DNA of 64,000 bases from an uncultured archaeon (GTDB lineage: Archaea > Thermoplasmatota > Penumbrarchaeia > JASLWR01), in assembly GCA_964342815.1 (NCBI GenBank), contig CAYFHS010000001.1, positions 51,749-115,748 of the forward strand. Reading direction: 5' to 3'. Positions 1 to 15,906 of this stretch are shown here, piece after piece (the first letter of the stretch is position 1; each line of letters opens with the position of its first letter). The notes beneath the pieces were generated by a model. It was not told the DNA's origin. It worked only from the letters and a program-made list of their open reading frames with translations, and did no database searches. The translations under genes and the position numbers were made by a program.

Positions 1-2555
1 TGAACGTCAATACTGATGGGCGGATCGGATTTGAACCATCCAAACTCGGTGACGTTGTAATGTATCTCCGGGGGATGAGAATCCTTATCGTAATTTATAG
101 TGGTCTGATTTACATTGAGCGCCTTGTCAAAACAACGGATCTGAACGGTGAGATCGCCATTTACCACGTTGACCCAATCCAGGGCCCAGTTGTCGGTGTA
201 ATCCGTGGTAACGGTACCATTGAATATGTCCGTCCAAACTCCCGGGGCACCTGCACGATACTGGGCGAACCAGAGATCGGATCCACTGCCGCCGTTGGAG
301 AAATCCACATCGATCACAGCACCGGGGTCTTCATAGTACTGGCCGTAACTGGCAGTATTGACCGTGATGATCGGTGCGGTTGAATCGTCGCTTATGGGGA
401 TAGTAGTGTAAAATGGTTTCAGATCGTCTCCGGTCACAGTGATATTTGCCAGTCCCGCCACAGTAGGGGTACCCGACACCGAGGCATCTCCGTTGGCATC
501 GGTGGTGTCATTGGCAAAGAGGTCGGGCCAGTTCACAAGATCCACCCTGGCATTGGCTACGTTTGCGCTTAATGAGTCCTCCACATGGACTGGCAGTGGA
601 GCGGCAGAGTCGGTATAGGTCATTGCGGGATGGGTCACGGTTAGAGGTTCAGGTTCGTTGAACCAGAAATTCATGGTGGGGTCGCCCATGTAGTTCACGG
701 TGTAATAGATCCATCTCATATACCCCAGGTGATTGAATCCTGCCAGATCTTCCATTCCCAGCCGATTGGCTTTCCCGGCTTCCCTTACGCCTCCGTTGAA
801 AAGTTTATCGAAGAATTCCAGGGCAAATTTATGCGAAGGCGAAGCAAGCATGTTCCCAGGTGAATATAGGCCGTACCGTGTATTCCCGATGAATACCACG
901 CTGCCTCCGTTGGCATTGAACATCAGGTGCTCGCTTATGGCATCGCTGTAATCAAATGCATTGGCATAGCAGCCCATTGTATAGAACAAATTGAATCTGT
1001 GATCGCTCACGTGGGCGTCCGCATCCGCGCGGTAATAACCAAGTGTTTCCGTAAGTGACATCACGTTGTAATTGGCATGCCCTCCATTGTAAACCACGTT
1101 CACCCCGTCGTTCATTGCCGTGTTGAAATTATTCTTTGTAGCATTTCCGAGGGTTTCGTACAGCTTGATGGAAGTCATCTGCGGTGGAAATGTCTTACTT
1201 TCCAGGTCATCGGAGGAGAGGCTGGCATCCGTATTATCATCCAGCCATGCCGCCGAAAGAAGGGCTTTCTCCACAAATCCCGTACGCGGGTCCCTCTCGT
1301 AGTCAAAAACCTTGTTGACGAAGGTATCTGCCTGTGCAGTGGTACTCACCGGTGCACGGCCGATGTATACTTCAGAAACCTGATCCACATCTCCTCCCGC
1401 GGTCCCGTCATTGGACTCGCCCCAACGCCCGTCTCCGTCATTGTTGTACGGTCCATCCAGACAACCGAAGTAATGATCTACCGGTATATTATCGTCCTCG
1501 CAAACACCGGAGACAAGCCCGTAAAGTCCCCTGAAAGGAACAACGTCCGTATCCCCGCCTATCAGGATATATTCAGTGTTCCAGTTCTGGTAGGCATCGT
1601 TAACGAAATTACGTATCTCCGCAGGAGTGTCCACATCGTCATAGTCCGCATCCGAAGTAATGTCCGCAAGATCTACAATTTTCGTCGGAATACCCTTGTT
1701 TATCTTCCACTGGGCAAGTGGAAGGAAATGATCGTACAGGGCGGCGGAAGTAATGATTACATAGGGATAATACTCCCCGGGTTGGGGTATGCTTCTTTCT
1801 CCTGCCATGGAAGCGAAATTGTACGAATCCAAAATGTGGTCAATAGAGGGTTCGCTTGTTACCAGATTCCGTTGAAGCAGCTCCTCTCTGTCGAGAAGGC
1901 CTCCCGCACCGTGTCTAAGCATGGGGAGGCTGTTATAGTCGGCGTTGTCGCGAAGGTTCAATTTCATTTCAGCTCCTGAATAAAACCGTAATTCGTGAGT
2001 GTCCGGTTCATAACAGATGGGATCGACGATTAAACTGGCAATGGCAAAACCCCTGAAATACTGGATGCCGGTATTTTTCACTGTGGGGCGGCGGGTATCC
2101 CTGGTTGGAAAGTTCTCCCCAGGACCATCTTTCTGATATGATTGAGGCCCTCCCGGATAAGTTATGAACGGAGCTTTCTCAAGTGGAATACTACTGGAGA
2201 TCACCGTGGGATGCCCCCAGTCTATCTCGATATCAGCGATGTCCGCACCAGGAGGTAAGAGCGCATTAACGGTCCGGGAAGGGATATTGAATGCGCCCGG
2301 GGGAGTCACCGAGACCCATCCATCGCCCGATAAGGATATTGTATTCTTAGTCACCCCTGAATTCACTTCGGGCATGGGGAAATCCAGAGACAACGATAAC
2401 GAATCGCCGTTGCCCTGTTCATCACCTTCGCCATATTCCGGTTTAAGATCTCCAGTCGGGGCTGCAACCACAGGAGAAGCTATGTTCAGGACCAACAGTG
2501 CCAGAATGCCCAGCAGTAACATCCTCGCAATTGGGAATTTATTTTTTCGTGTCAT
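1..2555 (-). CDS. Secreted gingipain-like cysteine peptidase (family C25) with propeptide and C-terminal Ig-like extension; runs off the left edge
   Basis: Hand translation from ATG at 2555 (not in the ORF track, no stop in window): signal peptide MTRKNKFPIARMLLLGILALLVL, propeptide-like PGAFNIPSRTVNALLPPGA, YILIGGD, IGRAPV, candidate catalytic His (GGHAN) and Cys (MGCYAN), YMGDP. Confidence 0.85.
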   Translation of the reverse strand, partial: MTRKNKFPIARMLLLGILALLVLNIASPVVAAPTGDLKPEYGEGDEQGNGDSLSLSLDFPMPEVNSGVTKNTISLSGDGWVSVTPPGAFNIPSRTVNALLPPGADIADIEIDWGHPTVISSSIPLEKAPFITYPGGPQSYQKDGPGENFPTRDTRRPTVKNTGIQYFRGFAIASLIVDPICYEPDTHELRFYSGAEMKLNLRDNADYNSLPMLRHGAGGLLDREELLQRNLVTSEPSIDHILDSYNFASMAGERSIPQPGEYYPYVIITSAALYDHFLPLAQWKINKGIPTKIVDLADITSDADYDDVDTPAEIRNFVNDAYQNWNTEYILIGGDTDVVPFRGLYGLVSGVCEDDNIPVDHYFGCLDGPYNNDGDGRWGESNDGTAGGDVDQVSEVYIGRAPVSTTAQADTFVNKVFDYERDPRTGFVEKALLSAAWLDDNTDASLSSDDLESKTFPPQMTSIKLYETLGNATKNNFNTAMNDGVNVVYNGGHANYNVMSLTETLGYYRADADAHVSDHRFNLFYTMGCYANAFDYSDAISEHLMFNANGGSVVFIGNTRYGLYSPGNMLASPSHKFALEFFDKLFNGGVREAGKANRLGMEDLAGFNHLGYMRWIYYTVNYMGDPTMNFWFNEPEPLTVTHPAMTYTDSAAPLPVHVEDSLSANVANARVDLVNWPDLFANDTTDANGDASVSGTPTVAGLANITVTGDDLKPFYTTIPISDDSTAPIITVNTASYGQYYEDPGAVIDVDFSNGGSGSDLWFAQYRAGAPGVWTDIFNGTVTTDYTDNWALDWVNVVNGDLTVQIRCFDKALNVNQTTINYDKDSHPPEIHYNVTEFGWFKSDPPISIDV

Positions 2556-2917
2556 GTTATCCCGTTTTTTATCTCGTTCAAATGATGTTGTAATATACCC
2601 TATTAAAAACACGTATTTCAGCGAGTTACTCGGCTCATATTCACTTATGTAGAATAGATGTGGGTAGCAAGAATGAATGATTATAACCGCGTTATATATA
2701 TGGTTAATATAGGTTAAAAATATTATTGCGTCATTTCAAATTTTTTATTTTCATTACAGGTTAACCGAATACGGTAACGACCCCATTAACAAAATATCTT
2801 TAACCTTGTTTTACAACAAAGTAAAAAATTATAAAAGGCACGACCCTAATCTTTTGCCCAGCTTCCAAGGGCCGGGGGTTGGTTAGTGGTTGTTCAATCG
2901 ATTAAACGGAAGATATT

Positions 2918-3349
2918 ATGCCTGGCAGTTATTCAGAATATGGACGGGACCTTCTCGTTCTTACGAAAAAAGGAGTGGGTGACAAATTCACCACCGACCT
3001 GTCTGTGAAAAGGACGGGTGACCTTGAGACTGTGGAAGGACGTGATCTCATGATTCAGGCAATAAGGCACAGGCTGCTAACGCGAAAGGGCGAACTTGCT
3101 CTGCTTGGTCATCCGGAGTACGGGTCTCTTCTGGAAGATGTTATCGGTGAGCCAAACATTCCGGATACCCATAGGATCATAGAGACGCTTATAAGAGACT
3201 GCCTGAAATACGAGGCCAGGATAAAAACCATAATATCGGTGAAAGCTTCTCCATCCGAGAAAGACAAGGTAAATATATTGGTCCACGTAGAACTGCAAGG
3301 GGGAGATGGGGAACTAAAGATAACGTATCCCCTTTACCTGGAGGAGTGA
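2918..3349 (+). CDS. Baseplate wedge protein, GPW/gp25 family
   Basis: 143 aa; QAIRHRLLTRKGE..HPEYGSLL..IGEP..CLKYEARI is the gp25 pattern; overlaps the start of the baseplate J gene. Confidence 0.85.
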   Translation: MPGSYSEYGRDLLVLTKKGVGDKFTTDLSVKRTGDLETVEGRDLMIQAIRHRLLTRKGELALLGHPEYGSLLEDVIGEPNIPDTHRIIETLIRDCLKYEARIKTIISVKASPSEKDKVNILVHVELQGGDGELKITYPLYLEE

Positions 3350-4845
3350 AATTGGTTTTCAAAAAGAAAGAATACAAAAGTATCGTTGACGCAATTCTAA
3401 AAGATCTCCAGGAACGCTCGCAGGTGGCGGATACCAATGTGGGATCGGTGAGCCGGACACTCGTGGAATCCGTAGGACGTGAGATTTCGATAATGTACGA
3501 GCAGATGGAGGCGGCCTACAATGCCGGTTTTATAGATTCGGCCAAGGGAACCGCTCTGGATATGGTGGTGGCCGTTCTGGGAGTTCAGAGAAAATCTGCT
3601 CAGTTTGCAACGGGCTCAGTGACTTTTTCAAGAAGAAAGGCCAACCAGGATGTTACCATTCCACGCGGAACTATGGTTTCCACAGTTTCCTCGGATCCCT
3701 CCAAGGTAAAGGTTTTCGAGACCAGCGTGACGGTTACGCTGATCAGGGTAAATAATGATATTGAAGTACCTGTAAAGGCGGTTATTCCCGGCAAGGAAGG
3801 AATGGCGGATTTTGAGACCATCGTGAAACTTGATAGTCCCATCATAGGTATAGACCGGGTGTTGAATAAAAAACCTACGACCATCGGAACAGAGAGGGAG
3901 ACCGACGAGGAATTAAGGGCCAGAGCAAAGGCAGTGGTGCTTTCAGCCGGTAAGACCACTGTGGAATCCATAAGAAATGCTGTCATGTCCATCCCTGGTG
4001 TAAGAGGAGTGACAGTGAACGACATGCCCGATGGTGTCCCCGGCGAGATAGACGTTATCGTGGATGGGCCCGACATCTCGGACCCGGAAGGAAGCACTTC
4101 TTTGGCCGTCTTCGAGACAGTGGAAAGGGTGAGACCGGCGGGGATAAGGGTCAATATTAAATCCACCACTCTCGTGAGGACCGATATTACAGCATTCGTC
4201 AATCTTACGGACGTTGCGAGAACCGACGAGGAGATGGACCGGACCCTCGATTCCATCCGAGACAGTGTCACAAATTACATTATTTCGCTTAACAGCGGGG
4301 ACAATATCATAAGGAACCGACTGGTGACGGCATTGTTCGGCAATCCCAATATTGACAATCTCGAAGATATGGTGATAATCACCAGGGTATTCGATGAAAA
4401 GGTAAGAGGAATGGTGGAAGATACCCGAAAAAGGATTGACGAGCGGACCCGTGATATCGAGATCGGCGAGTATGAGCGGGTGGACCTGTCGGGGGTTGAT
4501 ATCAGGACGCAGTTCACCCCCAGGCTCATCTCGTACGTGCAGATCGACCTTTCGGCACGAGTGATACCTACCAAAAAGACAATTTCCTTGGAAAGGCTCC
4601 GGGAGGGAATCGAGAACCAGATACACGCACATTTCGATAAACTGAGGACCGGGGAGACAGTGGATTACCAAAGAATATTCAATCTTGTGAAAGGTGTCGA
4701 GGGCATATCCGAACTGGTAGAACTGAATATCTCTGCCTTCCATGAGGAATCGGGATTGACCTTGAACGACGCAAATGACAACATAATTACATCCGATAAC
4801 GAGATCGTAAAACTCAGGAATGTGGATGTCGATATGGAAGGTTAG
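3346..4845 (+). CDS. Baseplate J-like protein
   Basis: 499 aa; GSVSRTLVE, FIDSAKGTALD, RKSAQFATGSVTF, GTERETDEELRARA, ERVRPAGI; C-terminal extension. Confidence 0.88.
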   Translation: MKLVFKKKEYKSIVDAILKDLQERSQVADTNVGSVSRTLVESVGREISIMYEQMEAAYNAGFIDSAKGTALDMVVAVLGVQRKSAQFATGSVTFSRRKANQDVTIPRGTMVSTVSSDPSKVKVFETSVTVTLIRVNNDIEVPVKAVIPGKEGMADFETIVKLDSPIIGIDRVLNKKPTTIGTERETDEELRARAKAVVLSAGKTTVESIRNAVMSIPGVRGVTVNDMPDGVPGEIDVIVDGPDISDPEGSTSLAVFETVERVRPAGIRVNIKSTTLVRTDITAFVNLTDVARTDEEMDRTLDSIRDSVTNYIISLNSGDNIIRNRLVTALFGNPNIDNLEDMVIITRVFDEKVRGMVEDTRKRIDERTRDIEIGEYERVDLSGVDIRTQFTPRLISYVQIDLSARVIPTKKTISLERLREGIENQIHAHFDKLRTGETVDYQRIFNLVKGVEGISELVELNISAFHEESGLTLNDANDNIITSDNEIVKLRNVDVDMEG

Positions 4846-4891
4846 GGAATTTCATTATCTGGTTCAGTTCCACATATGCAGGTGAGCTAAG

Positions 4892-6037
4892 ATGCTTAAC
4901 ACGGAAAGGATGGCAAATCGGCTTCCCATGTACCTCGAGGCTTACCGGGAAAACTCCACCATCAGAGCCGTTCTTGATGCTTTCGGGAGAGAGATGGAGA
5001 GGGCTGAGGAAAATCTCGGGAAACTGATGAAATCCAAATGGTTCTTCCATGCTGACCTCGGTGACCTGGAGAGGATGGGGCTGCTTTTCGGGATTCCAAG
5101 GCTCCCTGGCGAGATGAAGGTTCCATACCGCCAGCGCTTCTATCTCACTGTGAAAGAGCTGCTTACCGGAGCAGGCACGATAGATTCCATAAGCAAAATT
5201 GTAGAAGCCACAATAGGGACTTCCCCCGATATTGAAGAGAATCCCGCTGAGATAGTTGAGAGCCCGGTCCGTGAACTTGGATCTGACAGCGCCTGGAGCG
5301 AATACAACAAAAGCGTGAAGGAGGACCGGCCCGTAATAACGATCCGCCCCCTTACCCGGGTCCGGGACCCCACGGTAACGAACATCACTACACAGGAATC
5401 CATCACATACAGGGGATTGCTTCGCAAAGGATCCATGCTGCGGATACTGCCGGATGGGACCGCTTCACTTGCAGGGATCGACGTATCGTCCCGCTTGGAA
5501 TTTTATAAGGACGACCAACGGCAGACCGAGGTGCTGACGCCCAGGGTGCCAAAGATGCATTCCGAATGGAAGTATACGGATGGAACCGGATTTTTCGATT
5601 ACGCGCATTTCTCGGAAGCTGTTTTCGCCGCTGCTGCAAAAAATCAGGTAGCAGTGCAGTTAAGGTGGATAAGATACAGACCTGCCACGTTCAATGTCAG
5701 GATGGCGCTGTACTCCAAGGGAGGCCGGTCCACCGAATCAATCGGTTACGAAAAACACCTCCGACAGGAAGTGCGCCATCTAGTTGATCACGTGAAGAGC
5801 GCCGGCGTAAAGGCCAATATTAATTTCTACGACAATTTCACGGAGAAAAATACGGTGCGGGATCAGGGGATCGAGCCCTCCTTTGGAATCCATCATACGG
5901 ACCGTGAAACCCTAGGGGAAGAACTGGAGATGAATGTTGTGATGGAGTTCTGCGAGCAGCAGACCCTGGGGGACCGAATCTATTCCTGCGGAGTATTCGA
6001 TATTACTGAATTCGACTCGGCGAATGTGTGGGGATGA
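4892..6037 (+). CDS. Baseplate/tail protein (gpI/YmfQ-like N-terminus)
   Basis: N-terminal RLPMYL..DAFGREM..DLERMGLLFGIPR..YRQR..GAGT pattern typical of the gene after baseplate J; C-terminal HVKSAGV and FD-type motifs. Confidence 0.65.
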   Translation: MLNTERMANRLPMYLEAYRENSTIRAVLDAFGREMERAEENLGKLMKSKWFFHADLGDLERMGLLFGIPRLPGEMKVPYRQRFYLTVKELLTGAGTIDSISKIVEATIGTSPDIEENPAEIVESPVRELGSDSAWSEYNKSVKEDRPVITIRPLTRVRDPTVTNITTQESITYRGLLRKGSMLRILPDGTASLAGIDVSSRLEFYKDDQRQTEVLTPRVPKMHSEWKYTDGTGFFDYAHFSEAVFAAAAKNQVAVQLRWIRYRPATFNVRMALYSKGGRSTESIGYEKHLRQEVRHLVDHVKSAGVKANINFYDNFTEKNTVRDQGIEPSFGIHHTDRETLGEELEMNVVMEFCEQQTLGDRIYSCGVFDITEFDSANVWG

Positions 6038-6211
6038 ATTTTTTATCACAAATACTCAATCTTTGCCTCTATCATCTCCACCCTTCTCAACCCTCCCGGG
6101 CTCATGGACCGCACCTTTTTTTCCCCCTCTCATCAATAAGGGCTCGCATAAGAATAAGTTCCCATTCTTGCATCCCATCTACCAAGTGGCACACCCGTAG
6201 AAAACATTTCT

Positions 6212-7525
6212 TTACTTCCATTGTGATGCGGAATAGCTCAGTAACCATTCCCATAGGGGTATGTAATCGATGGTTTTCCCTTCTATGTCCTTCATATCTC
6301 TGGTATCTCCTGAAATAATCGTGCCCTTATCGAGGTCGAATTTATCAAGAGCGGATAGAAGAGATCTTGTTTCTCTTTCATCTGCGGCAGATACATCACA
6401 GCAGACCTGGATCGCCTCAACGATCTCATCCCCCTTCATTATCAGGAAATCCACCTCCCCGGAACTGTCCTTCCAGTAGTACATCTCATCATTATATCTC
6501 TTAAGTTCCATGAATACGATATTTTCGTACAGTCTTCCGAGGTCGCGGCTGAATTTGAATCCCACTGCGTTCCTTATACCCGTATCCGTACAGTATATTT
6601 TCTTCGGGTTGACCTGCTGCTTTTTGAGTGAATGGGAGAAGATGGACAATGAGAAAAAAAAGTAAGCTTCTTCCATGGCATGCAGGTAGCTCGATACGGT
6701 ATCGGATGAGATTCCCAGGTGTTTTGCGATTTTACTGTAATTCAGCAGATTTGATATATTTGGAAAGAGATAATTCTTCAGGTTTTCCACCTTGTCGGTC
6801 TTCGTAACGTTCGACCTCTTGATCACATCCCGGTATAGAATGCTGTCGGAATAGAATTTAAGAAGTTCCTTCTTGAAGCTTTCATTTTTTTCAAGGACGA
6901 TCTCAGGAAAACCGCCCCACTGAATATATTCTCTCAGATGGTTTTTTATCATATGCCTTTTTGAGATGATCTCCAGCTTTCCATCGATTGTTACATTCTT
7001 TGCTTTGATAAATTCCCTGAAAGACAGGGGGTACACCTCGAAGTAAACGAATCGACCGGCCAATGAGGTGGACAGTTCGCTCTTAAGCAGCCTGGAGCCG
7101 CTCAAGAATATCTTAACATCTTTATCCAGGTCATATATCCTTTTTACCGTTCGATCCCAATCCTTCTGTTCCTGCACCTCGTCCAGAAAGATATACACCT
7201 TTCCCGTCGGGTTGAACATTTCGAGATGCTTGGTCCTGGCACTTTCGATAAGGTTTTCTTCCTGAATTCTCTCATCATCGCATTTGATGAATAGAATATT
7301 CTCTCCGGGGACCTTTGTCAGCAGATATTTTATCAGAATGTACATTATCGTTGTCTTGCCGGACCTTCGACAACCGGTAATGGGAATAACCTGTTTCTTG
7401 TCGATCCACAATATTATTTTTTCCAGGACTTCCCGTTCCAGATAATCCGATTTGAGATCCCCTGTCCACCAGGGATTCCATTCGACGAGTATTTGCTCTT
7501 GCATTATAGTTGTAATACGGCTCAT
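6212..7525 (-). CDS. AAA_14 ATPase with DUF4143 C-terminal domain
   Basis: Walker A GCRRSGKT, Walker B FLDEVQ, SLAGR, GGFPE, KKIYCTD, YENIV, EVDF. Confidence 0.9.
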   Translation of the reverse strand: MSRITTIMQEQILVEWNPWWTGDLKSDYLEREVLEKIILWIDKKQVIPITGCRRSGKTTIMYILIKYLLTKVPGENILFIKCDDERIQEENLIESARTKHLEMFNPTGKVYIFLDEVQEQKDWDRTVKRIYDLDKDVKIFLSGSRLLKSELSTSLAGRFVYFEVYPLSFREFIKAKNVTIDGKLEIISKRHMIKNHLREYIQWGGFPEIVLEKNESFKKELLKFYSDSILYRDVIKRSNVTKTDKVENLKNYLFPNISNLLNYSKIAKHLGISSDTVSSYLHAMEEAYFFFSLSIFSHSLKKQQVNPKKIYCTDTGIRNAVGFKFSRDLGRLYENIVFMELKRYNDEMYYWKDSSGEVDFLIMKGDEIVEAIQVCCDVSAADERETRSLLSALDKFDLDKGTIISGDTRDMKDIEGKTIDYIPLWEWLLSYSASQWK

Positions 7526-7671
7526 GGCAAATAAATCTTCCGAATGAAATCGTGTAATTTATGAATTTTACGCGATTTAAATCGTGTGTTCTACAAAAAT
7601 GAGACGACCAGCTATGGAAAAATCTACATTATTTCCGGTCCCTTCCGCTAGAATTCATCTTCGTCGTTCCC

Positions 7672-8235
7672 CTACTCCTCCTTACCCTTTCTTCTCATTC
7701 CAAACATCAAGATACCAACGATCGCTCCTACCAAGAACACTACAAGCACAACCCCCACGAGCCACAACACCTTACCATCCCCTTCTTCCGCATTTTCTTG
7801 TCTTTCCCACCGTTCGCTGTCATCAGGATAAGCATCGTCCACGTTCAGTACCCCGTCCCCATCTCTGTCCGGATCGATGAAACCGGGTATCCCTTCTCTA
7901 TTTTGATCTCTTGGATACAATGTATAATAAAGGGAATCTTCATCCGTTTCGGTATCCGGATACCAGTAAAAATAAGCTGTAAATGAAATAACAACAAGGG
8001 AGATGATAACTGCAACAAGAAAAAGTAAACGACCCTGTTTCTTACTCTTATATTCTATCTGTTTTAGGCGTTTCTTCTCTTCTTTCATGGATGAATGTTC
8101 GAAATAATAGTTGCAACTGGGACAGAACTTTTTGTTTCTTTCCGCTGTAAAAACGAATTTCTTGCATTTGGGACATATTCGTATCTTAGTGTCGGCTTTG
8201 CCACCTTTCACTTTCGACATAATATCCACCATCAT
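7672..8235 (-). CDS. Small two-TM membrane protein with N-terminal zinc ribbon and a thrombospondin-3-like Ca-binding loop
   Basis: CPKC..CPSC, hydrophobic helix, DPDRDGDGVLNVDDAYPDD, second hydrophobic helix, basic tail RRK. Confidence 0.7.
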   Translation of the reverse strand: MMVDIMSKVKGGKADTKIRICPKCKKFVFTAERNKKFCPSCNYYFEHSSMKEEKKRLKQIEYKSKKQGRLLFLVAVIISLVVISFTAYFYWYPDTETDEDSLYYTLYPRDQNREGIPGFIDPDRDGDGVLNVDDAYPDDSERWERQENAEEGDGKVLWLVGVVLVVFLVGAIVGILMFGMRRKGKEE

Positions 8236-8334
8236 ACGTTATATGCACCAATGTTACCTTCAAACTTCTACATTTAAATGTTCGTTCTCTAAATTAAGCT
8301 TTATTGAATATCATTCATCCCCTTCTTCCCTTTT

Positions 8335-11300
8335 CTAGCCATCACTATCCTTTCCAACCCTCCCCAACTCATCCACCGCACCACCTTCTATCTTCTCCTC
8401 ACCCGTACCCTCCTTCCTTCTGACCAATATCACTCCCCCAATCACTACGAGCATCAACACTGCACCCAAAATTATCACTAGCCACCATACCGTACCGTCC
8501 CTTTCTTCCACTATTTTCTCCGCTTCCCATCGATCTCCGTCATCGGGATAAGCGTCGTCCACGTTCGCTACCCCGTCTCCGTCTCTGTCTGGGTCCAGGG
8601 AATCGGGTATGCCGTCTCGGTCGATGTCCTGTGGGACCGATAAATTATTCCGGGGATCCGTACCGACTTGCGTCTCAATGGTGTCATTCCAGCCGTCACC
8701 ATCTGAATCTAATGGGGTCTGGTTGTTATAATTGTATTCTACATACATTGTTAGTAAATCCTCGTTCGTAGGAATTCTACAATCCTGGTTTCCATCAGTT
8801 GCGATAAAATAATATCCATGAAATCCCTCGGGCAAATTTAGAGAATATTCGTATCTAATTCCATCCGAAAAATTAAACCGCTTGGGATCATCCTTAATCA
8901 TTGAATACCAGAAATTACCAATTATCAAACTAATATTCGCCGGGGGATCATTATCAACATCCATGTAATGCACGTAGAATGTGAAATTCATGGACGTATC
9001 TCCATTATTTGGTGTGACATTCCCATCATACAAGATTGGCGGATCGTTGACGTTCCATACGCGAAGCAGGAACTCGCTGTAGCCCCAACCGTCATTTCCA
9101 TCTGAAACAGTGATATTGACCATATAGATACCTACATCGTCATTCGTTGGTGTTCCATTCAATATGCCAGTATTGGAATTTATCGACAGCCATGTAGCAT
9201 TCGTCATAAGGGACCATGAAATCAACCCCTGCCCATCATCAGTTGAATTGTATTCGTTATAGTATACCTCATCCTGATATATTTCAACGATATTTCGAGT
9301 GGTAATAATAGGAGGTGTATTCAATACATCGAAAATGAAATTGAAAAAGTCTTCACCGTCGTTACCGTCATCTATAGAAACGTTTATGTTATACTTTCCC
9401 ACATCGTGATTCGTTGGATGACCGAATAGAACTCCAGATGTCGAATTCTGGCTTAACCAATCTGCATTTGTATCAAGATCCCATGTAGTGCTCCCCTCGC
9501 CCTCATCGGTTGAGTTTAGGTCTAAAAATAATTCTTCATCCTCATAAACGTAATACCTGTCGGGTAAAAAGATTTCGGGGGATGTATTATTAACAACAAT
9601 AGTGAAATTTATCTCATCCCAATAAATAATACCTTGAACATGGAGATTGACCCAATATGTACCCACATGGAGATTGAAAGGGAATCCAACGAGGCTGTTA
9701 GTGAATTCATCCCAGAATAACCAGGGCGCATTGGTATTGAGGGTCCACGACTCAGGTTTCTCTCCTGTAGTATTGAAATGTAGTGAGTAGTTATCATCCT
9801 CGCTCAAATATACAATTGTAGGTCTTGTCTCAAGATATATGCCTGGTCTAATGCTGAGATTGATTAGTATCGTTAGGTCTTTCATGGATGAAATCTCAAC
9901 CCAACCCCATCCACTTGCATTGATCCATCTATAGCGGTCGTGGGTGCGGTTGGCAATGGTAATCTCACCACGGAACTTCCCAGTGTTTTCTCCGCTCTCT
10001 AATAATCTCAATCTGAATCGATTATTAGGGTTAGATTTTCCTTTGACCCAGACCTGGGCAACATTCTTCCGAGATGGATTTCTATCGTTCGCCCTCAGTT
10101 CTAAGAATATCTTGTTACCAGCGTATACGTAGGAAATTTCTTGTGAGTATTCATCGTCAGAATAGGCTTTGACAGAGGTGATGGATGTGGGTCGGGAGTT
10201 GAGATCCGGAAAGATGAGGTATGTCTGGCCAGCGTCACTACCTCCCTCGTCATTTTTGTTTGCTCCAATCAGAATGTCGTCATATCCGTCTCCGTTGACA
10301 TCGCCCCCACCTGCTACTGAATATCCAGACCAGTCGTATGCGTCTTCTCCCCAGAATGATGCGTCCGATGCGGATAGATCGGTGTCCATAACCCAGCCGG
10401 AGGGCTTGCCTAATATAAGGTATGACTGGCCTGCTCGATAATTATTGTTGCGGTTTCGATATGCTCCAATCAGAATGTCGTCATATCCGTCCCCATTAAC
10501 ATCTCCCGCACCTGCAACCGAACCTCCAGAACTGTCCCATTGGTCTTCTCCTAAGAAGGATATGTCTGATGTTGAGACGTCCATATCCATGAACCAGCCA
10601 GAAGCTTTGCCGAGTATGAGGTATGTTTTCCCTTTTGACTGACCGAAGCCGGGAGCTCCAATCAGAATGTCGTCGTATTCATCCCCGTTAACATCACCCC
10701 CACTTGCGACTGACCATCCGGAAACACTGCCTATGCCCTTTCCCCAAAAAGATGCGTCCGAATCGGAGAGGTTTGTGTCCATGGCCCATCCCGAACCTTT
10801 TCCAAAGATGAGGTATGTTTGGCCGGAAGCTAATCCACCACTTTCATCCTCGTATGCTCCAATCAGAATGTCGTCATATCCATCTCCGTTGACGTCTCCT
10901 GCACCTGTGACGGAGCATCCAGAACAGTCGCCTCCGTCCTCCCCTAAAAACGATGCGTCTGAATCAGAGAGGCTTGTGTCCATGGCCCAGCCTGAGCTCT
11001 TGCCGAATATGAGATATGTCTGACCTGTATAATCACCACCGCTGTTCTCGTCACCGAATGCTCCAATCAGAATGTCATCGTATCCATCCCCGTTGACGTC
11101 TCCTGCACCTGCGATCGATATCCCCGAATAGTCTTGTTGGTCTTCTCCCCAAAATGATGCGTCCGAATCAGAGAGGTCGGTGCCCATGGACCACCCGGAA
11201 ACCTTTCCTAGTATGAGATATGTCTGGCCTGCACGAGAACCACCGTCCTCATCATAGACTGCTCCAATCAGAATATCGTCATATCCGTCTCCGTTGACAT

Positions 11301-11679
11301 CCCCCGCTCCAGCAATCGAGGCTCCAGAGCCGTCATCAGAGTCCTCTCCCAGAAATGATGCGTCTGAATTGGAGAGGTTTGTGTCCATGGACCACCCGGA
11401 AGCTCTGCCGAATATGAGATATGTCTGACCTGAATGATTCCCAGCATCATCGTCACCGTTTGCTCCGATCAGAATGTCGTCATATCCATCTCCGTTGACA
11501 TCCCCCGTAACTGCGATCGAGCCCCCGGACCAGTCATCGGCGTTCTCCCCCCAGAATGATGCATCAACATTCCCGAGATCCTGGTTCATCCCATAATCCA
11601 GCGCCTTAGAAGATATTGGAATGAGAAGCATTGAGACTATCATCAGGAATATCGTGCCCAAAGCGAATTCTTTTCTCAT
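8335..11679 (-). CDS. Surface protein: seven FG-GAP (integrin-alpha-like) repeats, Ig/cadherin-like domains, TSP3-like repeat, C-terminal TM anchor
   Basis: Signal peptide; 7x GDVNGD(G/E)YDDILIGA; repeated WLS..G.L.G.PTN.DVG.Y.(V/I)N(I/V) units; DSDGDG/DRDGDG; TM then RRK. Confidence 0.88.
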   Translation of the reverse strand: MRKEFALGTIFLMIVSMLLIPISSKALDYGMNQDLGNVDASFWGENADDWSGGSIAVTGDVNGDGYDDILIGANGDDDAGNHSGQTYLIFGRASGWSMDTNLSNSDASFLGEDSDDGSGASIAGAGDVNGDGYDDILIGAVYDEDGGSRAGQTYLILGKVSGWSMGTDLSDSDASFWGEDQQDYSGISIAGAGDVNGDGYDDILIGAFGDENSGGDYTGQTYLIFGKSSGWAMDTSLSDSDASFLGEDGGDCSGCSVTGAGDVNGDGYDDILIGAYEDESGGLASGQTYLIFGKGSGWAMDTNLSDSDASFWGKGIGSVSGWSVASGGDVNGDEYDDILIGAPGFGQSKGKTYLILGKASGWFMDMDVSTSDISFLGEDQWDSSGGSVAGAGDVNGDGYDDILIGAYRNRNNNYRAGQSYLILGKPSGWVMDTDLSASDASFWGEDAYDWSGYSVAGGGDVNGDGYDDILIGANKNDEGGSDAGQTYLIFPDLNSRPTSITSVKAYSDDEYSQEISYVYAGNKIFLELRANDRNPSRKNVAQVWVKGKSNPNNRFRLRLLESGENTGKFRGEITIANRTHDRYRWINASGWGWVEISSMKDLTILINLSIRPGIYLETRPTIVYLSEDDNYSLHFNTTGEKPESWTLNTNAPWLFWDEFTNSLVGFPFNLHVGTYWVNLHVQGIIYWDEINFTIVVNNTSPEIFLPDRYYVYEDEELFLDLNSTDEGEGSTTWDLDTNADWLSQNSTSGVLFGHPTNHDVGKYNINVSIDDGNDGEDFFNFIFDVLNTPPIITTRNIVEIYQDEVYYNEYNSTDDGQGLISWSLMTNATWLSINSNTGILNGTPTNDDVGIYMVNITVSDGNDGWGYSEFLLRVWNVNDPPILYDGNVTPNNGDTSMNFTFYVHYMDVDNDPPANISLIIGNFWYSMIKDDPKRFNFSDGIRYEYSLNLPEGFHGYYFIATDGNQDCRIPTNEDLLTMYVEYNYNNQTPLDSDGDGWNDTIETQVGTDPRNNLSVPQDIDRDGIPDSLDPDRDGDGVANVDDAYPDDGDRWEAEKIVEERDGTVWWLVIILGAVLMLVVIGGVILVRRKEGTGEEKIEGGAVDELGRVGKDSDG
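10240..11530 (-). repeat. Intragenic tandem repeat of about 201 bp, 7 copies, encoding FG-GAP blades
   Basis: Core cc(a/g)atcagaat(g/a)tc(g/a)tc at 10265, 10466, 10658, 10859, 11063, 11264, 11465 (spacings 201, 192, 201, 204, 201, 201). Confidence 0.9.
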
Positions 11680-11827
11680 TATGACTACCTTTTAAAAATA
11701 GTTTCTCGACTTTACAATTAATATATGAATTTATAGTTACAATAATAATTAAATTTTTGTCCTACATTTTCAATTCTTGGGTTATTGTCGTATCCTTGCT
11801 CCATTGCACTTCATTGTCGTTTAGGGA

Positions 11828-11966
11828 ACATAACGGACCGGTCTGTATGCTAAGTTCTGCGGGTGGGGATAGTATACGGTCGATCCAACAGTACGGTGAG
11901 GGAAAATAGGTCGGAAGCCGTAAGAGCGAAAACCGCCAAGTTGTTGGTTATGCAAAGTCGTTAGGA
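11828..11966. other. Solitary attC-like imperfect inverted repeat
   Basis: ACATAAC at the left end, CGTTAGGA at the right end; TAACG/CGTTA, TGTAT/ATGCA and GCGG/CCGC pairings; 139 bp. Confidence 0.4.
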
Positions 11967-12080
11967 GCAAGCTTTTAAGTGCCTCGGTTTGCCATTTGAG
12001 TGGAAAAAAGCTCATCTATTCATCAAGAAGTATTTTGAAAGAGGAAACTATTTAAATTAGTTTCCCTCTATGAAATACTT

Positions 12081-13400
12081 ATGAAGCGAGATGTATTCAT
12101 TGAAATTATACAGGACTTTAAAGAAAAATCACTCCCGGAATTGGTGGAACGTGAAACGATACTGAAAAGACCTACCGTAAAAAAAATAATTTCTGTGATC
12201 GGGCCTCGCAGAGCAGGTAAAACCTATTATATTTTCAATATTATAAAAAACCTAATCTCCGAGGGGATCCCGAAAGAGAGGGTGATTTACGTTAACCTTG
12301 AAGATGAGCGTTTATTTCCTCTTGAAGTAAAAGATATGGATTTATTTCTCCGGACCTTCTTTGAAATTCATTCTGTTGATAAAAATGAAGAAATCCATCT
12401 TTTTTTAGATGAAGTTCAAAATGTGGATAATTGGGAAGCATTTGTAAGGCGTATAATGGACACATACAATATTCAAATATATATAACAGGTTCATCTTCG
12501 AAATTGTTATCTAAAGAAATTGCAACTTCATTGAGGGGTAGATCATTATCAACAACTATACTACCATTTTCTTTTCGAGAATATTTAAAGGCAGGAAAAA
12601 TTGAAATAAATAAATTTCTATCTTCATCAAAAAAAGAAAAAATCCGCTCTAAGCTTTCAATTTTTTTAAAATATGGCAGCTTTCCCGAAATCACCCTCGA
12701 AAAGGATAACGATCTAAAGCATAAGATCATTAAAGAATATGTTGAAGTTATGCTTCTTCAGGATATTATTGAAAGGTATAATATTAAAAATACAAAATTA
12801 TTGAAAATATTATTTGATGGTATCATATCATCAACTTCAAGTACATTTTCAATCCATAAATTCTTTAAATTTCTACGTTCACAAGGTATGAAAATTAGCA
12901 AGAATACCCTGTATCAGTATGTTCAATACCTTGAAGATGCCTACGCGATCATATTATTGAGAAGTTTTAATTTTTCAGCTCGTATGGTTGAACAGAGTTT
13001 ACCGAAGGTCTACCCAATCGATCCCGGTTTCATATTGACACATTCCACTCGTTTTTCAAGGGACTTGGGGAAGGCTATGGAAAATGTAGTGGCAGTTGAA
13101 CTTTTCAGGAGAAGATCCGAACAACCCAGTCAAGATATATATTACTGGAAAGAACAGAATAGCAAAGAAGTGGATTTTGTTATTAAAGAGAATCTGAAAA
13201 TTACCAAATTAATTCAGGTTTGTTATGACATTGATAATTTCAATACCTACAGACGTGAGATTGATTCTATACTCAGATCCAGTGAAATATTGGAATGTAA
13301 TGATCTGTGTGTTATAACCTGGGATAAGGACGAAATAATTGAGGTAAAGGGTAAAAAAATAGAATACATCTCGCTCTGGAAATGGCTGATAGCTCATTGA
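12081..13400 (+). CDS. AAA_14 ATPase with DUF4143 domain (second paralog, AT-rich)
   Basis: GPRRAGKT, FLDEVQ, SLRGR, GSFPE, KVYPID, MENVV, EVDF. Confidence 0.9.
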   Translation: MKRDVFIEIIQDFKEKSLPELVERETILKRPTVKKIISVIGPRRAGKTYYIFNIIKNLISEGIPKERVIYVNLEDERLFPLEVKDMDLFLRTFFEIHSVDKNEEIHLFLDEVQNVDNWEAFVRRIMDTYNIQIYITGSSSKLLSKEIATSLRGRSLSTTILPFSFREYLKAGKIEINKFLSSSKKEKIRSKLSIFLKYGSFPEITLEKDNDLKHKIIKEYVEVMLLQDIIERYNIKNTKLLKILFDGIISSTSSTFSIHKFFKFLRSQGMKISKNTLYQYVQYLEDAYAIILLRSFNFSARMVEQSLPKVYPIDPGFILTHSTRFSRDLGKAMENVVAVELFRRRSEQPSQDIYYWKEQNSKEVDFVIKENLKITKLIQVCYDIDNFNTYRREIDSILRSSEILECNDLCVITWDKDEIIEVKGKKIEYISLWKWLIAH

Positions 13401-13617
13401 TTGTTATTTTCTTGTATATTCACGCTTCATCAGTCATCGTCGAAAAATCTTCTTCAATCTTCCGATCGTGAAATTGAATTTTAATCCCAAGTCATGTATC
13501 AAAATTCGCCATAACACTTTGGTTTCCGAGTGTACCCTTTTGACAAAATACCACATTACCAATATCTCCTTCCCACCAGTTACCAGCCAACATAGAAATA
13601 AAATATCTGAATTACCC

Positions 13618-15822
13618 ATGGCTACCATGCAGGAATTGATCTCAAAATTTCTGAAAATAATCGCGGATCGGATATCCCGCCACAGAATTCTCTATATTAT
13701 CATAGTGGTATTGATAACCGCGGCCCTCATCTATCCTCTTTTACAGATAAAGTTCAACGCCGATATGGATGTTTTTTCACCGGATGAGCCCGTGGTAGTG
13801 GCAAAAAAATATGTGGAAGATAATTTTCTATCCGAAAAAGTGATATTAATAATCGCAATTCCTACTTCAGGCAGGGTCAACGATACGGAATTTCTGGGTG
13901 ATCTAATAGAAACGGGGGATTGGATCGAGGTTAATGAAATAATTGAAAATACGTTTTCCATTGCGGATTATATCGAAATAGTATTAAATATGTCGAATCT
14001 GACGATGTCCGAATGTCCACTCGAGATGCTCGATTCTTTACTGTATCAGGCCACAATGGATCGGAATGTTTCCGGACTCTTTACTTCGGAGGCGGCCCTT
14101 ATAATGGTCAGTCCTTCGGATTCCTCGGATGAGGGCGAATTGAGCGAGTTTCTGCGGAAGGATGTCCGTGATACTCAAAATGTTCAATACAAAATTCTTG
14201 CCGGGTTCGATGAGGATCTGAACGATGGGGCAATACGAAGTCTTTACCTGTTCCCCGTAACCATTGCCCTCATCATCGCCGTGCTGTATCTCAGTCTCAG
14301 ACGCTGGTTCGATGTGGTTCTGACAATGTTTGCTATTCCGGTCGTATTGATTTGGACCTTCGGAATCTCCGTTATCGTGGGACTTGAGATCACCATCCTG
14401 GGTATGGCTGTGCCATTTATAGTGCTTGCCCTGGGTATCGATTACGCCATTCATTCCATGAACCGCTATACCGAGGAGAAGGAGCGGGGATTGTCTGGCG
14501 AAAAAGCAGCGGGCACGACCATAAAATACCTAGGTGTGGCGCTTCTACTCTCCTCCATAACCACGGTGGCGGCGTATCTGTCCAATGCTGCGTCATCCAT
14601 ACCCGCAGTTGTGGATTTCGGGATAATGGTGGGAATCGGGATCACCAGCTCATTTCTGATAATGGGTCTCCTTTTACCGGTTGTCCGATCACTTTTCGGC
14701 AAGGGTAACATCGGGAAAAAACGAGCCGATCCCGTAGGAACAATATGGAAAAAACTGAGCCGGAAACTAGGTCGCTTGTTCAATAAACCACGGAACGCCG
14801 CAATTGTCCTTGCCTTCATTTTGATAATTACAGCCATATCCGCTTCCATGGCCTTGAAATTGGACTCGGAATTCGAGCCCGACGATATTCTTCCCGAAGA
14901 CTCCGAATGGTTGGATGCACAGAGAACATTGGTCGAGCATTTTCCCATAAACCTGAATAGTTACCAGGTCCTGATAACGGGAGATATCGCCAATCCCGAA
15001 ACATTGAGGGCCATCGAATCGGTGACCCTGAACAACCAGGTCAGTGATTCGCTAGTGCACCATTTAACAAACTGGTCATCTCTCGACAGTGAAGGTATTG
15101 CCGAGTTATTGGACCAAATATTCATTGAAGATCCGTCCATGGGCCATGTGCTCCATAAGGACGGAAACGTATACGATGCAACGGTGATCTGGTTGGATGG
15201 TGCCCATGAGAACGATATCGATCTTACGTCTCTCGAAGGCGTAAAGGGGATCGATTTCATCATTACCGGGGAAAAACTCACGGGCGATCTGGTGGTGGAT
15301 GAACTTTCGTCGTCGATGCTGACCTCGCTTTTTATTTCCATCATTGTCTGCGCAGTGGTGGTATCTCTCGTTTATCTCTCCCCCAGGATCGGAATTATTA
15401 CTTTGCTGCCTGTCAGCATAGTTACAGTTTGGCTATTATCGGCCATGCGGATCTTGGGTTTTTCTCTGAATGTTGTTACGATAATAATTGCAGTCACATC
15501 CATCGGAGTGGGCATTGATTATTCCATCCATATCACTCACAGCTTTCTCAGTGAAAGGGCGAAAAATATCGTAAGACAGAAAGCGATTATCAACTCACTC
15601 GGTCGCAGCGGGATCTCGCTTGTGGGAGCGGCTCTCACCACCTCGCTGGGTTTTCTTGTTTTGGCATTTGCTCCGATGAAAGGGTTTATGGCTTTTGGTA
15701 TCCTCACCCCAATAATGATCATTTTCAGTCTTTTCGGAGCGATTCTTGTATTGCCGCCGTTACTGCTGTTATCGGACCGGCTCCCGTACATTAAGAATAT
15801 TCTGGGTCGACGTAATAGATAA
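13618..15822 (+). CDS. MMPL/RND-family transporter
   Basis: Two repeats of 1+5 TM with GIDYAIH and GIDYSIH motifs; ATG at 13618 (or 13627) preferred over the upstream GTG. Confidence 0.88.
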   Translation: MATMQELISKFLKIIADRISRHRILYIIIVVLITAALIYPLLQIKFNADMDVFSPDEPVVVAKKYVEDNFLSEKVILIIAIPTSGRVNDTEFLGDLIETGDWIEVNEIIENTFSIADYIEIVLNMSNLTMSECPLEMLDSLLYQATMDRNVSGLFTSEAALIMVSPSDSSDEGELSEFLRKDVRDTQNVQYKILAGFDEDLNDGAIRSLYLFPVTIALIIAVLYLSLRRWFDVVLTMFAIPVVLIWTFGISVIVGLEITILGMAVPFIVLALGIDYAIHSMNRYTEEKERGLSGEKAAGTTIKYLGVALLLSSITTVAAYLSNAASSIPAVVDFGIMVGIGITSSFLIMGLLLPVVRSLFGKGNIGKKRADPVGTIWKKLSRKLGRLFNKPRNAAIVLAFILIITAISASMALKLDSEFEPDDILPEDSEWLDAQRTLVEHFPINLNSYQVLITGDIANPETLRAIESVTLNNQVSDSLVHHLTNWSSLDSEGIAELLDQIFIEDPSMGHVLHKDGNVYDATVIWLDGAHENDIDLTSLEGVKGIDFIITGEKLTGDLVVDELSSSMLTSLFISIIVCAVVVSLVYLSPRIGIITLLPVSIVTVWLLSAMRILGFSLNVVTIIIAVTSIGVGIDYSIHITHSFLSERAKNIVRQKAIINSLGRSGISLVGAALTTSLGFLVLAFAPMKGFMAFGILTPIMIIFSLFGAILVLPPLLLLSDRLPYIKNILGRRNR

Positions 15823-15906
15823 GATAATAATTATACTCCACATTGCAGAATTGAAGCCCAAAGCGATTCCGTGTTCCGCTGCTTGCCTATAAAAACTTCT
15901 TTTCCT

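Follow-up and report, generated by a model that had tools for sequence, protein, structure and literature searches.

The 64-kb window analyzed here (the whole stretch of DNA examined, lying on the 343-kb contig C1 of an archaeal metagenome-assembled genome, or MAG) carries three adjacent genes predicted to encode a gp25-like sheath initiator, a Baseplate_J protein, and a third, gp7/gpI-like wedge protein. In our assessment, this triad is probably the wedge module of a contractile machine that consists of a tail only, does not belong to a virus, and is inherited as a set of scattered parts. Sheath, candidate tube, and spike genes are all present in the same organism and are unlinked to the wedge genes: the genome (G000; 4.35 Mb, 116 contigs, 89% complete) holds modules on contigs C1, C8, C10, C36, and C52, with cellular genes flanking each one. 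On balance, we also favor a history in which the machine was domesticated so long ago that its operon dissolved into at least six transcription units, which have since been inherited across several orders, with the splitting still ongoing.

The three open reading frames (ORFs) are co-directional on the plus strand at window positions 2918–6037, with a 4-nt overlap between ORF1 and ORF2 and a 46-nt gap between ORF2 and ORF3 (Table 1). They coincide exactly with the three intact, tightly coupled ORFs described in a first-pass annotation of this DNA, which had also proposed an AT-rich promoter region ahead of them; GC content indeed falls to 0.37 at 2501–3000, compared with ~0.50 in the surroundings, and a TATA-like box (AAAAATTATAAAAGG, 2823–2837) lies ~80 nt ahead of the ORF1 start codon, so that this region may well act as the promoter of the operon. 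ORF1 is a predicted gp25-like sheath initiator. It scored 34.5 bits against PF10934 Sheath_initiator (cut-off 32.9) and 22.3 bits against PF04965 GPW_gp25, below the cut-off of that family, and matched phrog_975 (E = 2e-20). A profile of 8 gp25 orthologues matched ORF61 of phage phi812 among PDB sequences (E = 1.7e-11), with weaker matches to gp25-like chains of the Streptomyces, Algoriphagus, and Anabaena contractile injection systems (CIS), the Photorhabdus virulence cassette (PVC), diffocin CD1370, and TssE. The EPR motif occurs as an EAR variant in G000, and the arginine of E-x-R (R101) is invariant in the alignment. Matches of the same kind identify ORF2 as a predicted Baseplate_J (gp6-like) protein, with 107 bits against PF04865 Baseplate_J (cut-off 21.1; E = 1.3e-30), phrog_6 at E = 7e-56, and PDB sequence matches to phi812 ORF62 (E = 2.2e-14), diffocin TRI-2 CD1371 (E = 6.3e-11), and wedge protein 2 of Bas63. 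Residues 1–340 of J are homologous to phage J proteins, the closest being those of the haloarchaeal myoviruses HSTV-2 and HRTV (30% identity over residues 5–330), and the ~160 C-terminal residues are lineage-specific. G000 encodes exactly one Baseplate_J gene and one Sheath_initiator gene.

The third protein is more divergent. ORF3 had no Pfam match; residues 3–123 matched phrog_1160, annotated as “baseplate protein” (E = 2e-12), and its profile gave weak matches among PDB sequences to phi812 ORF63/TmpF (E = 0.017) and wedge protein 1 of Bas63 (E = 0.029). An AlphaFold (AF2) model computed from 21 homologues, with a predicted local distance difference test (pLDDT) score of 70, displays a helical N-terminal domain (1–108), a beta-sandwich (113–272), a disordered tail, and a conserved C-terminal motif. 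The sandwich, which is confident in the model, is galectin/Dit-like (Z 13.1 vs chain K of the monocin tip, Z 12.4 vs SPP1 Dit), and the N-terminal helices reached Z 5.6–6.5 against wedge chains of Bas63, PhiTE, Mu, and Milano, values within the chance range for helices. Structural neighbors in a protein atlas include Tail_P2_I clusters, with template-modeling (TM) scores of 0.44–0.60. Nineteen homologues, all of ~381 aa, were found among 5.8 billion clustered proteins, including two at 84–85% identity. Together with a gene position and order that fit the third wedge protein, these data moderately support the identification of ORF3 as a gp7/gpI-type wedge protein with an added lectin-like domain.

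Other parts of the tail were located elsewhere in the genome. The first-pass annotation would have been refuted had the rest of the set been absent and the triad been missing or pseudogenized in relatives; the rest of the set is present though scattered, with a sheath on C10, a tube-fold protein on C36, and a spike with its PAAR protein on C52. The single sheath gene (C10:47121–48548, 476 aa; PF04984 and PF17482, phrog_279) stands among genes for ScpA/ScpB, a PAC2 protein, and giant FG-GAP/PKD surface proteins, with no tail gene alongside, and had no match in 50,697 phage records (tblastn). The spike and PAAR genes (C52:1899–3437; spike 2217–3437, minus strand) lie beside genes for a TPR protein and a PKD protein, and the spike combines a gpV-type OB domain with a DUF2345-like beta-helix. 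We traced the tube candidate via another genome, G005: a 133-aa ORF found there at a distance of 2.6 kb from the sheath gene has a homologue at C36:43211–43609 of G000. Its sequence match is weak (phrog_365, E = 5e-4), and the top 50 PDB matches of its predicted fold are nearly all tail-tube or Hcp chains, namely those of phi812, diffocin CD1364, Hcp, monocin, PVC, the antifeeding prophage (Afp), and a gene transfer agent (GTA). The candidate heads a three-gene unit with proteins of ~1050 and 415 aa that is syntenic in G002 and G003. For the 415-aa protein, a role as “tube-starter ring” was considered and not endorsed, as its profile gave nothing meaningful against PDB sequences. No match to the T4-gp19-family tube PF06841 (E ≤ 1) or to the hub family PF05954 (VgrG/GPD) was obtained in G000, and the tube families PF09393 and PF04985 yielded nothing usable in this genome; a PF04985 match on C25 was dismissed, being located inside a 566-aa ORF with E = 0.02. 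The DUF4255/Pvc16 terminator family had no match in nine genomes, and the control genomes were silent as well.

Spike sequences are conserved between genera only in the N-terminal 130–180 residues, and in G002 (C18 5764–7299) a spike ORF of 225 aa is separated from PAAR by an unrelated ORF of 279 aa. The spike tip or cargo end appears to be exchangeable, and the variable C-terminal half hints at a diversifying target or cargo specificity.

One further candidate component lies within the window itself. The first-pass annotation had reported no other tail genes near the triad, which is correct for its direct neighborhood, as no sheath, tube, spike, capsid, or integrase gene adjoins it, but not for the window as a whole: 50 kb away, two overlapping ORFs (55549–56022 and 55997–56218) probably encode a tail-assembly chaperone. 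This identification is inferred from position and frameshift architecture, since the pair had no Pfam, PHROG, or PDB sequence match. A homologue immediately follows the sheath gene in G005, G006, G007, G010, and G014, and six genomes from three families (G000, G002, G003, G006, G010, and G014) share a TTT-CGY +1 slip site, with the 0-frame stop 1–5 codons past it; one copy in G005 has both frames joined into a single reading frame. Two frames joined by a frameshift are the architecture of phage tail-assembly chaperones.

Table 1 Features of the wedge operon and of the chaperone-like pair in the window
Feature	Position in window	Strand	Basis
Putative AT-rich promoter region of the wedge operon	2650..2917	+	GC content, TATA-like box
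gp25-like sheath initiator, XkdS/PF10934 type, 143 aa	2918..3349	+	Pfam, PHROG, PDB profile
Baseplate J/gp6-like wedge protein, 499 aa	3346..4845	+	Pfam, PHROG, PDB sequence matches
gp7/gpI-like third wedge protein, 381 aa	4892..6037	+	PHROG, weak PDB profile, AF2 fold
T-rich stretch, possible oligo-T terminator	6038..6125	+	TTTTTT at 6040–6045, T8 run near 6115
Tail-assembly-chaperone-like pair, 157 aa + 73 aa in +1 frame	55549..56218	+	Sheath-adjacent homologues, frameshift site

On C8 lies a probable fiber cassette of three genes, whose products are a protein that resembles tail fibers at its N-terminus and contains a sheath-like insert, a protein of 158 aa, and a Big_1 protein. We tie this cassette to the wedge by way of G007, where a divergent gp25-J-I operon leads straight on to genes homologous to the second and third members of the cassette. 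Beside the modules examined, no lysis cassette was seen. The head-gene screen comprised three families (Terminase_6N, HK97-type Phage_capsid, and Phage_portal), none of which was found in G000 or eight relatives, while positive-control genomes were detected, and phmmer searches with 19 head and tail proteins of HSTV-2 retrieved J alone. In G005, two sheath-chaperone pairs stand in tandem (C59 3916–8486), a second, distant sheath (32% identity) is encoded on C260, and the tube gene is present in four or more full copies spread over different contigs; these extra copies could reflect paralogue expansion or a strain mixture in that MAG.

Next, we evaluated the distribution of these modules across 37 species genomes of the class, in which the order of G000 is represented only by the four genomes of family f1, and across 364 genomes of the phylum sample outside the class. 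The sheath was detected in 9 of the 37 class genomes, spread over families f1, f3, f4, f5, and f8, in none of the 24 genomes of family f7, and in none of the 364 others. Orthologous J and I genes occur in the same 7 of the 9 genomes with a sheath and are never linked to it; the chaperone is found in 8 genomes, the N-terminal domain of the spike in 7, and the 415-aa protein in all f1 genomes plus f4 and f8. Besides G000, six genomes from four families carry orthologous triads with open frames. Wedge and sheath genes are on separate contigs in every genome, including G002, which is assembled into only 40 contigs and has J on C12, the sheath on C6, the tube on C1, the spike on C18, and the chaperone on C32. 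Sheath-chaperone adjacency is kept in f3, f4, f5, and f8 and broken in f1, and G014 carries I and gp25-J on separate contigs; the break confined to f1 and the I split in G014 therefore point to a stepwise fragmentation.

Sheath, J, and I trees (FastTree) agree with each other and with taxonomy, each recovering f1 and f8, with f4 next to f8, and the identities of the modules are similar to those of neighboring housekeeping genes for the same genome pairs. The modules are under purifying selection: synonymous divergence is saturated (pS 0.73–0.87), pN is 0.17–0.40, and frames are open. The dN/dS check recommended in the first-pass annotation gave values of 0.05–0.18 where these could be estimated. 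Taken together, the scattered parts and the open-frame orthologous triads support that annotation in its proposal of a split but maintained system, with the exception of one relative, G001, in which J and I were deleted.

Several observations weigh against a maintained machine, some of them from this relative. G001, of the same genus and 93% complete, aligns to the window through position 3476 and resumes at 15906; the clean 12.4-kb deletion of window 3477–15905 (breakpoint at G001:C73 10492–10497) takes J after codon 47 and all of I, and no match for the tube, chaperone, or I was found in this genome. G001 keeps gp25 (83% identity; dN/dS 0.18 vs G000), the sheath (91%), the spike (88%), PAAR (84%), and the 415-aa gene (79%). 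This lineage is probably losing the machine, which must then be dispensable in at least one lineage, i.e., accessory and not essential. G006 has a shortened I gene whose match runs across a stop codon, and a 360-aa ORF is inserted between J and I there. On the side of the parts list, the model of the tube candidate has a pLDDT of only 63, and no tail terminator, gp27-type hub, or ATPase was identified among the machine parts. On the side of the sample, all genomes compared are MAGs (82–93% complete), and vertical inheritance was judged by the agreement of gene trees with taxonomy labels and not with a species tree.

The triad probably forms one transcription unit encoding the baseplate wedge of a contractile phage-tail-like particle, which could be of the tailocin, extracellular CIS (eCIS), or type VI secretion system (T6SS)-like type. 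By analogy with known baseplates, two J-like copies and one ORF3 protein would make up the wedge core, six wedges would ring the central spike, and the gp25-like protein would sit on top and template the first sheath ring. Fibers probably attach to ORF3 through its beta-sandwich and its conserved C-terminal peptide. The genes for the other parts lie at no fewer than five unlinked chromosomal sites, each probably with a promoter of its own, and the products would assemble into a contractile particle that may act either extracellularly or from the membrane. The whole set has probably been inherited jointly, and mostly vertically, in five families belonging to several orders of one archaeal class, probably of the Thermoplasmatota.

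These genes might instead be the decaying leftover of an integrated myovirus, with the triad and the other tail genes representing functionless, unrelated relics. The closest phage J proteins do come from archaeal myoviruses, and the deletion of J and I in G001, as well as the shortened I and the ORF inserted before it in G006, are what decay would look like. However, in four families the frames are still open although synonymous sites are saturated, and dN/dS is low; the unlinked sheath, J, I, and chaperone also share a near-identical phyletic pattern and congruent trees. In addition, head or packaging genes were not found anywhere with the three families searched, no integrase or att site accompanies the triad, and the ORF3 homologues at 84–85% identity are intact in other samples, so that we regard decay as improbable. 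Nor do we find it likely that the genes are maintained but exapted, i.e., that the wedge, with or without the sheath, serves a non-injection cellular role such as a surface or adhesion structure. The very large surface-protein genes (FG-GAP, PKD, and C25) around the modules, the C25 peptidase gene placed divergently beside gp25 in three f1 genomes, the lectin-like sandwich of ORF3, and a long vertical history resembling that of a housekeeping structure would all be compatible with such a role. Yet the flanking surface-protein genes are not conserved outside f1, and the full mechanical core (sheath, tube, spike, PAAR, gp25, J, I, and chaperone) is co-retained, a pattern for which there is little explanation other than selection for the contractile machine itself.

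As a further alternative, the scattered tail genes could belong to a GTA-like or fully viral system with head genes that have diverged beyond detection, which we consider very improbable. GTAs such as that of Rhodobacter capsulatus (RcGTA) are generally known to occupy several dispersed loci and to be vertically inherited, and the frameshifted chaperone and the tape-measure-sized gene are phage-like features. Against this, Terminase_6N, Phage_capsid, and Phage_portal, the only three head families searched, were absent from G000 and the eight relatives, leaving no capsid, portal, or terminase by which the set could be counted among GTAs, and HSTV-2 head and tail proteins other than J matched nothing. 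A tail-only contractile machine with dispersed genes is the reading that we prefer.

Comparison with known systems places the parts of this machine closer to the tails of phi812, PBSX, diffocin, and haloarchaeal viruses than to Afp/PVC eCIS or T6SS. This likeness stems from the PF10934-type gp25, the non-PF06841 tube, the lack of a GPD hub, the frameshifted chaperone, and a J protein nearest to those of HSTV-2 and HRTV. The best-matching solved proteins, phi812 ORF61-62-63, are the products of consecutive genes in the same order as in the triad, an order also seen in diffocin CD1370-CD1371 TRI-2-(1372), in which CD1371 is matched by J in sequence. PBSX XkdS-XkdT-XkdU and HSTV-2 gp29-30-31 represent the same three families in the same order, with a gp25 of PF10934/XkdS type. 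Identity to these four systems does not exceed ~30%; ORF3 differs in its Dit-like sandwich and in a C-terminus specific to the lineage, and J in ~160 extra C-terminal residues. The frameshifted chaperone and the restriction of the gene complement to a tail are shared with tailocins. As in R-type tailocins and PBSX, the tail comes without head or packaging genes (three families, in an 89% complete genome), but it is not encoded by a single inducible cluster complete with regulator and lysis genes. The wedge genes of myoviruses and R-type tailocins are found inside one long tail operon with lysis or regulatory genes, or within a whole virus, whereas the G000 triad is free-standing among cellular genes.

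Afp/PVC-type eCIS are covered by dbeCIS and by Chen (2019) and Geller (2021, PMC8213781). By definition, eCIS are encoded in one operon that includes a tube of the T4-gp19 family, a gp25 of the PF04965 type, a terminator of the DUF4255 family, and an AAA ATPase. The G000 set resembles Afp/PVC eCIS in being tail-only, in its gp25/J/I-like wedge, spike, and PAAR, and in the weak matches of its gp25 profile to the PVC, Algoriphagus, and Anabaena CIS. It differs from them in that its modules lie on five contigs instead of in a single contiguous operon, no PF06841 tube was found in G000, and gp25 falls under the PF04965 cut-off. Likewise, the VgrG/GPD-type hub-spike of T6SS has no counterpart in G000, in which PF05954 is silent and the spike is a gpV-type OB domain with a DUF2345-like helix. 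RcGTA and the orphan vgrG/hcp/PAAR islands of T6SS provide precedents for multi-locus, phage-derived machines inherited with the host chromosome. Unlike the G000 set, however, RcGTA has a head and a non-contractile tail, with most structural genes in one cluster, and the T6SS orphan islands are accessory to a core cluster, whereas family f1 is without any core cluster.

To our knowledge, a clustered, membrane-bound haloarchaeal system is the only archaeal CIS to have been characterized. This T6SS-like CIS of Halogeometricum borinquense is chromosomal, includes sheath, tube, and baseplate, and was shown to mediate contact-dependent antagonism (Zachs et al. 2024, PMC11566945). The haloarchaeal genes form a single cluster that belongs to the catalogued eCIS-related lineage and also encodes a membrane anchor and pairs of toxin and immunity proteins. 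Both this system and the G000 set are archaeal and chromosomal, but no T4-gp19-type tube, GPD/VgrG hub, or cluster was found in G000.

CIS have been found and classified almost entirely as gene clusters, and our literature search turned up no report of a CIS with scattered genes, nor of any CIS from this lineage. If our interpretation is correct, the set would be the first CIS encoded by a cell to lack a core cluster altogether, and cluster-based catalogues would undercount such machines in archaea. Clustering would then not be required to keep a machine of this kind, and the set would offer a natural case for the co-regulation of dispersed structural genes. It would also point to an unrecognized means of cell–cell interaction in uncultured sediment archaea. 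A generic archaeal BRE/TATA-like element (BRE, B recognition element) lies 75–125 nt upstream of all six modules in G000; a shared regulatory motif was sought in these regions, and only such generic boxes were seen, with no specific regulon signal.

The immediate flanks of the triad, for which the first-pass annotation had named a C25 peptidase and an AAA_14 ATPase, were corroborated by Pfam. On the left, a very large C25 (gingipain-like) peptidase gene with Ig-like domains (window 3–2612, minus strand) extends beyond the window to C1:48514, encodes ~1948 aa in total, and is divergent from the gp25 gene. It keeps this divergent position in three f1 genomes, including G001 and G002, but not outside f1, and was therefore rejected as a part of the system. 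The AAA_14+DUF4143 ATPase on the right (6212–7525, minus strand) was also rejected, as it is not syntenic in G002, and an ORF at 6028–6318 (plus strand) that overlaps the ATPase gene and has no matches was dismissed. The T-rich stretch following the ORF3 stop codon may be an archaeal oligo-T terminator. Since these flanks vary between families, the triad is a free-standing unit everywhere.

Just past the left end of the window, two paralogous genes of 421–451 aa with no known domains (C1:45368–48096, minus strand) show homology to a 474-aa gene of G007, the last one in its gp25-J-I-cassette operon, and may be further machine parts, such as fiber or receptor-binding proteins. Besides J and I, the G001 deletion covers the AAA_14 ATPase gene, an ORF with a Zn ribbon, the gene for an FG-GAP protein of 1114 aa, and two further ORFs, and a second gap in G001 removes a 1545-aa ORF at 17826–22463; gain and loss seem to be concentrated at giant surface-protein genes. 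Finally, G000 carries archaeal genes including Orc1/Cdc6, an archaeal pilin, and PAC2. The Orc1/Cdc6 gene (window 53399–54580, plus strand), whose protein has its nearest atlas clusters in Thermoplasmatota (a pointer to the affiliation of G000 and not a placement), is located ~1 kb upstream of the chaperone pair, and a replication origin may lie nearby.

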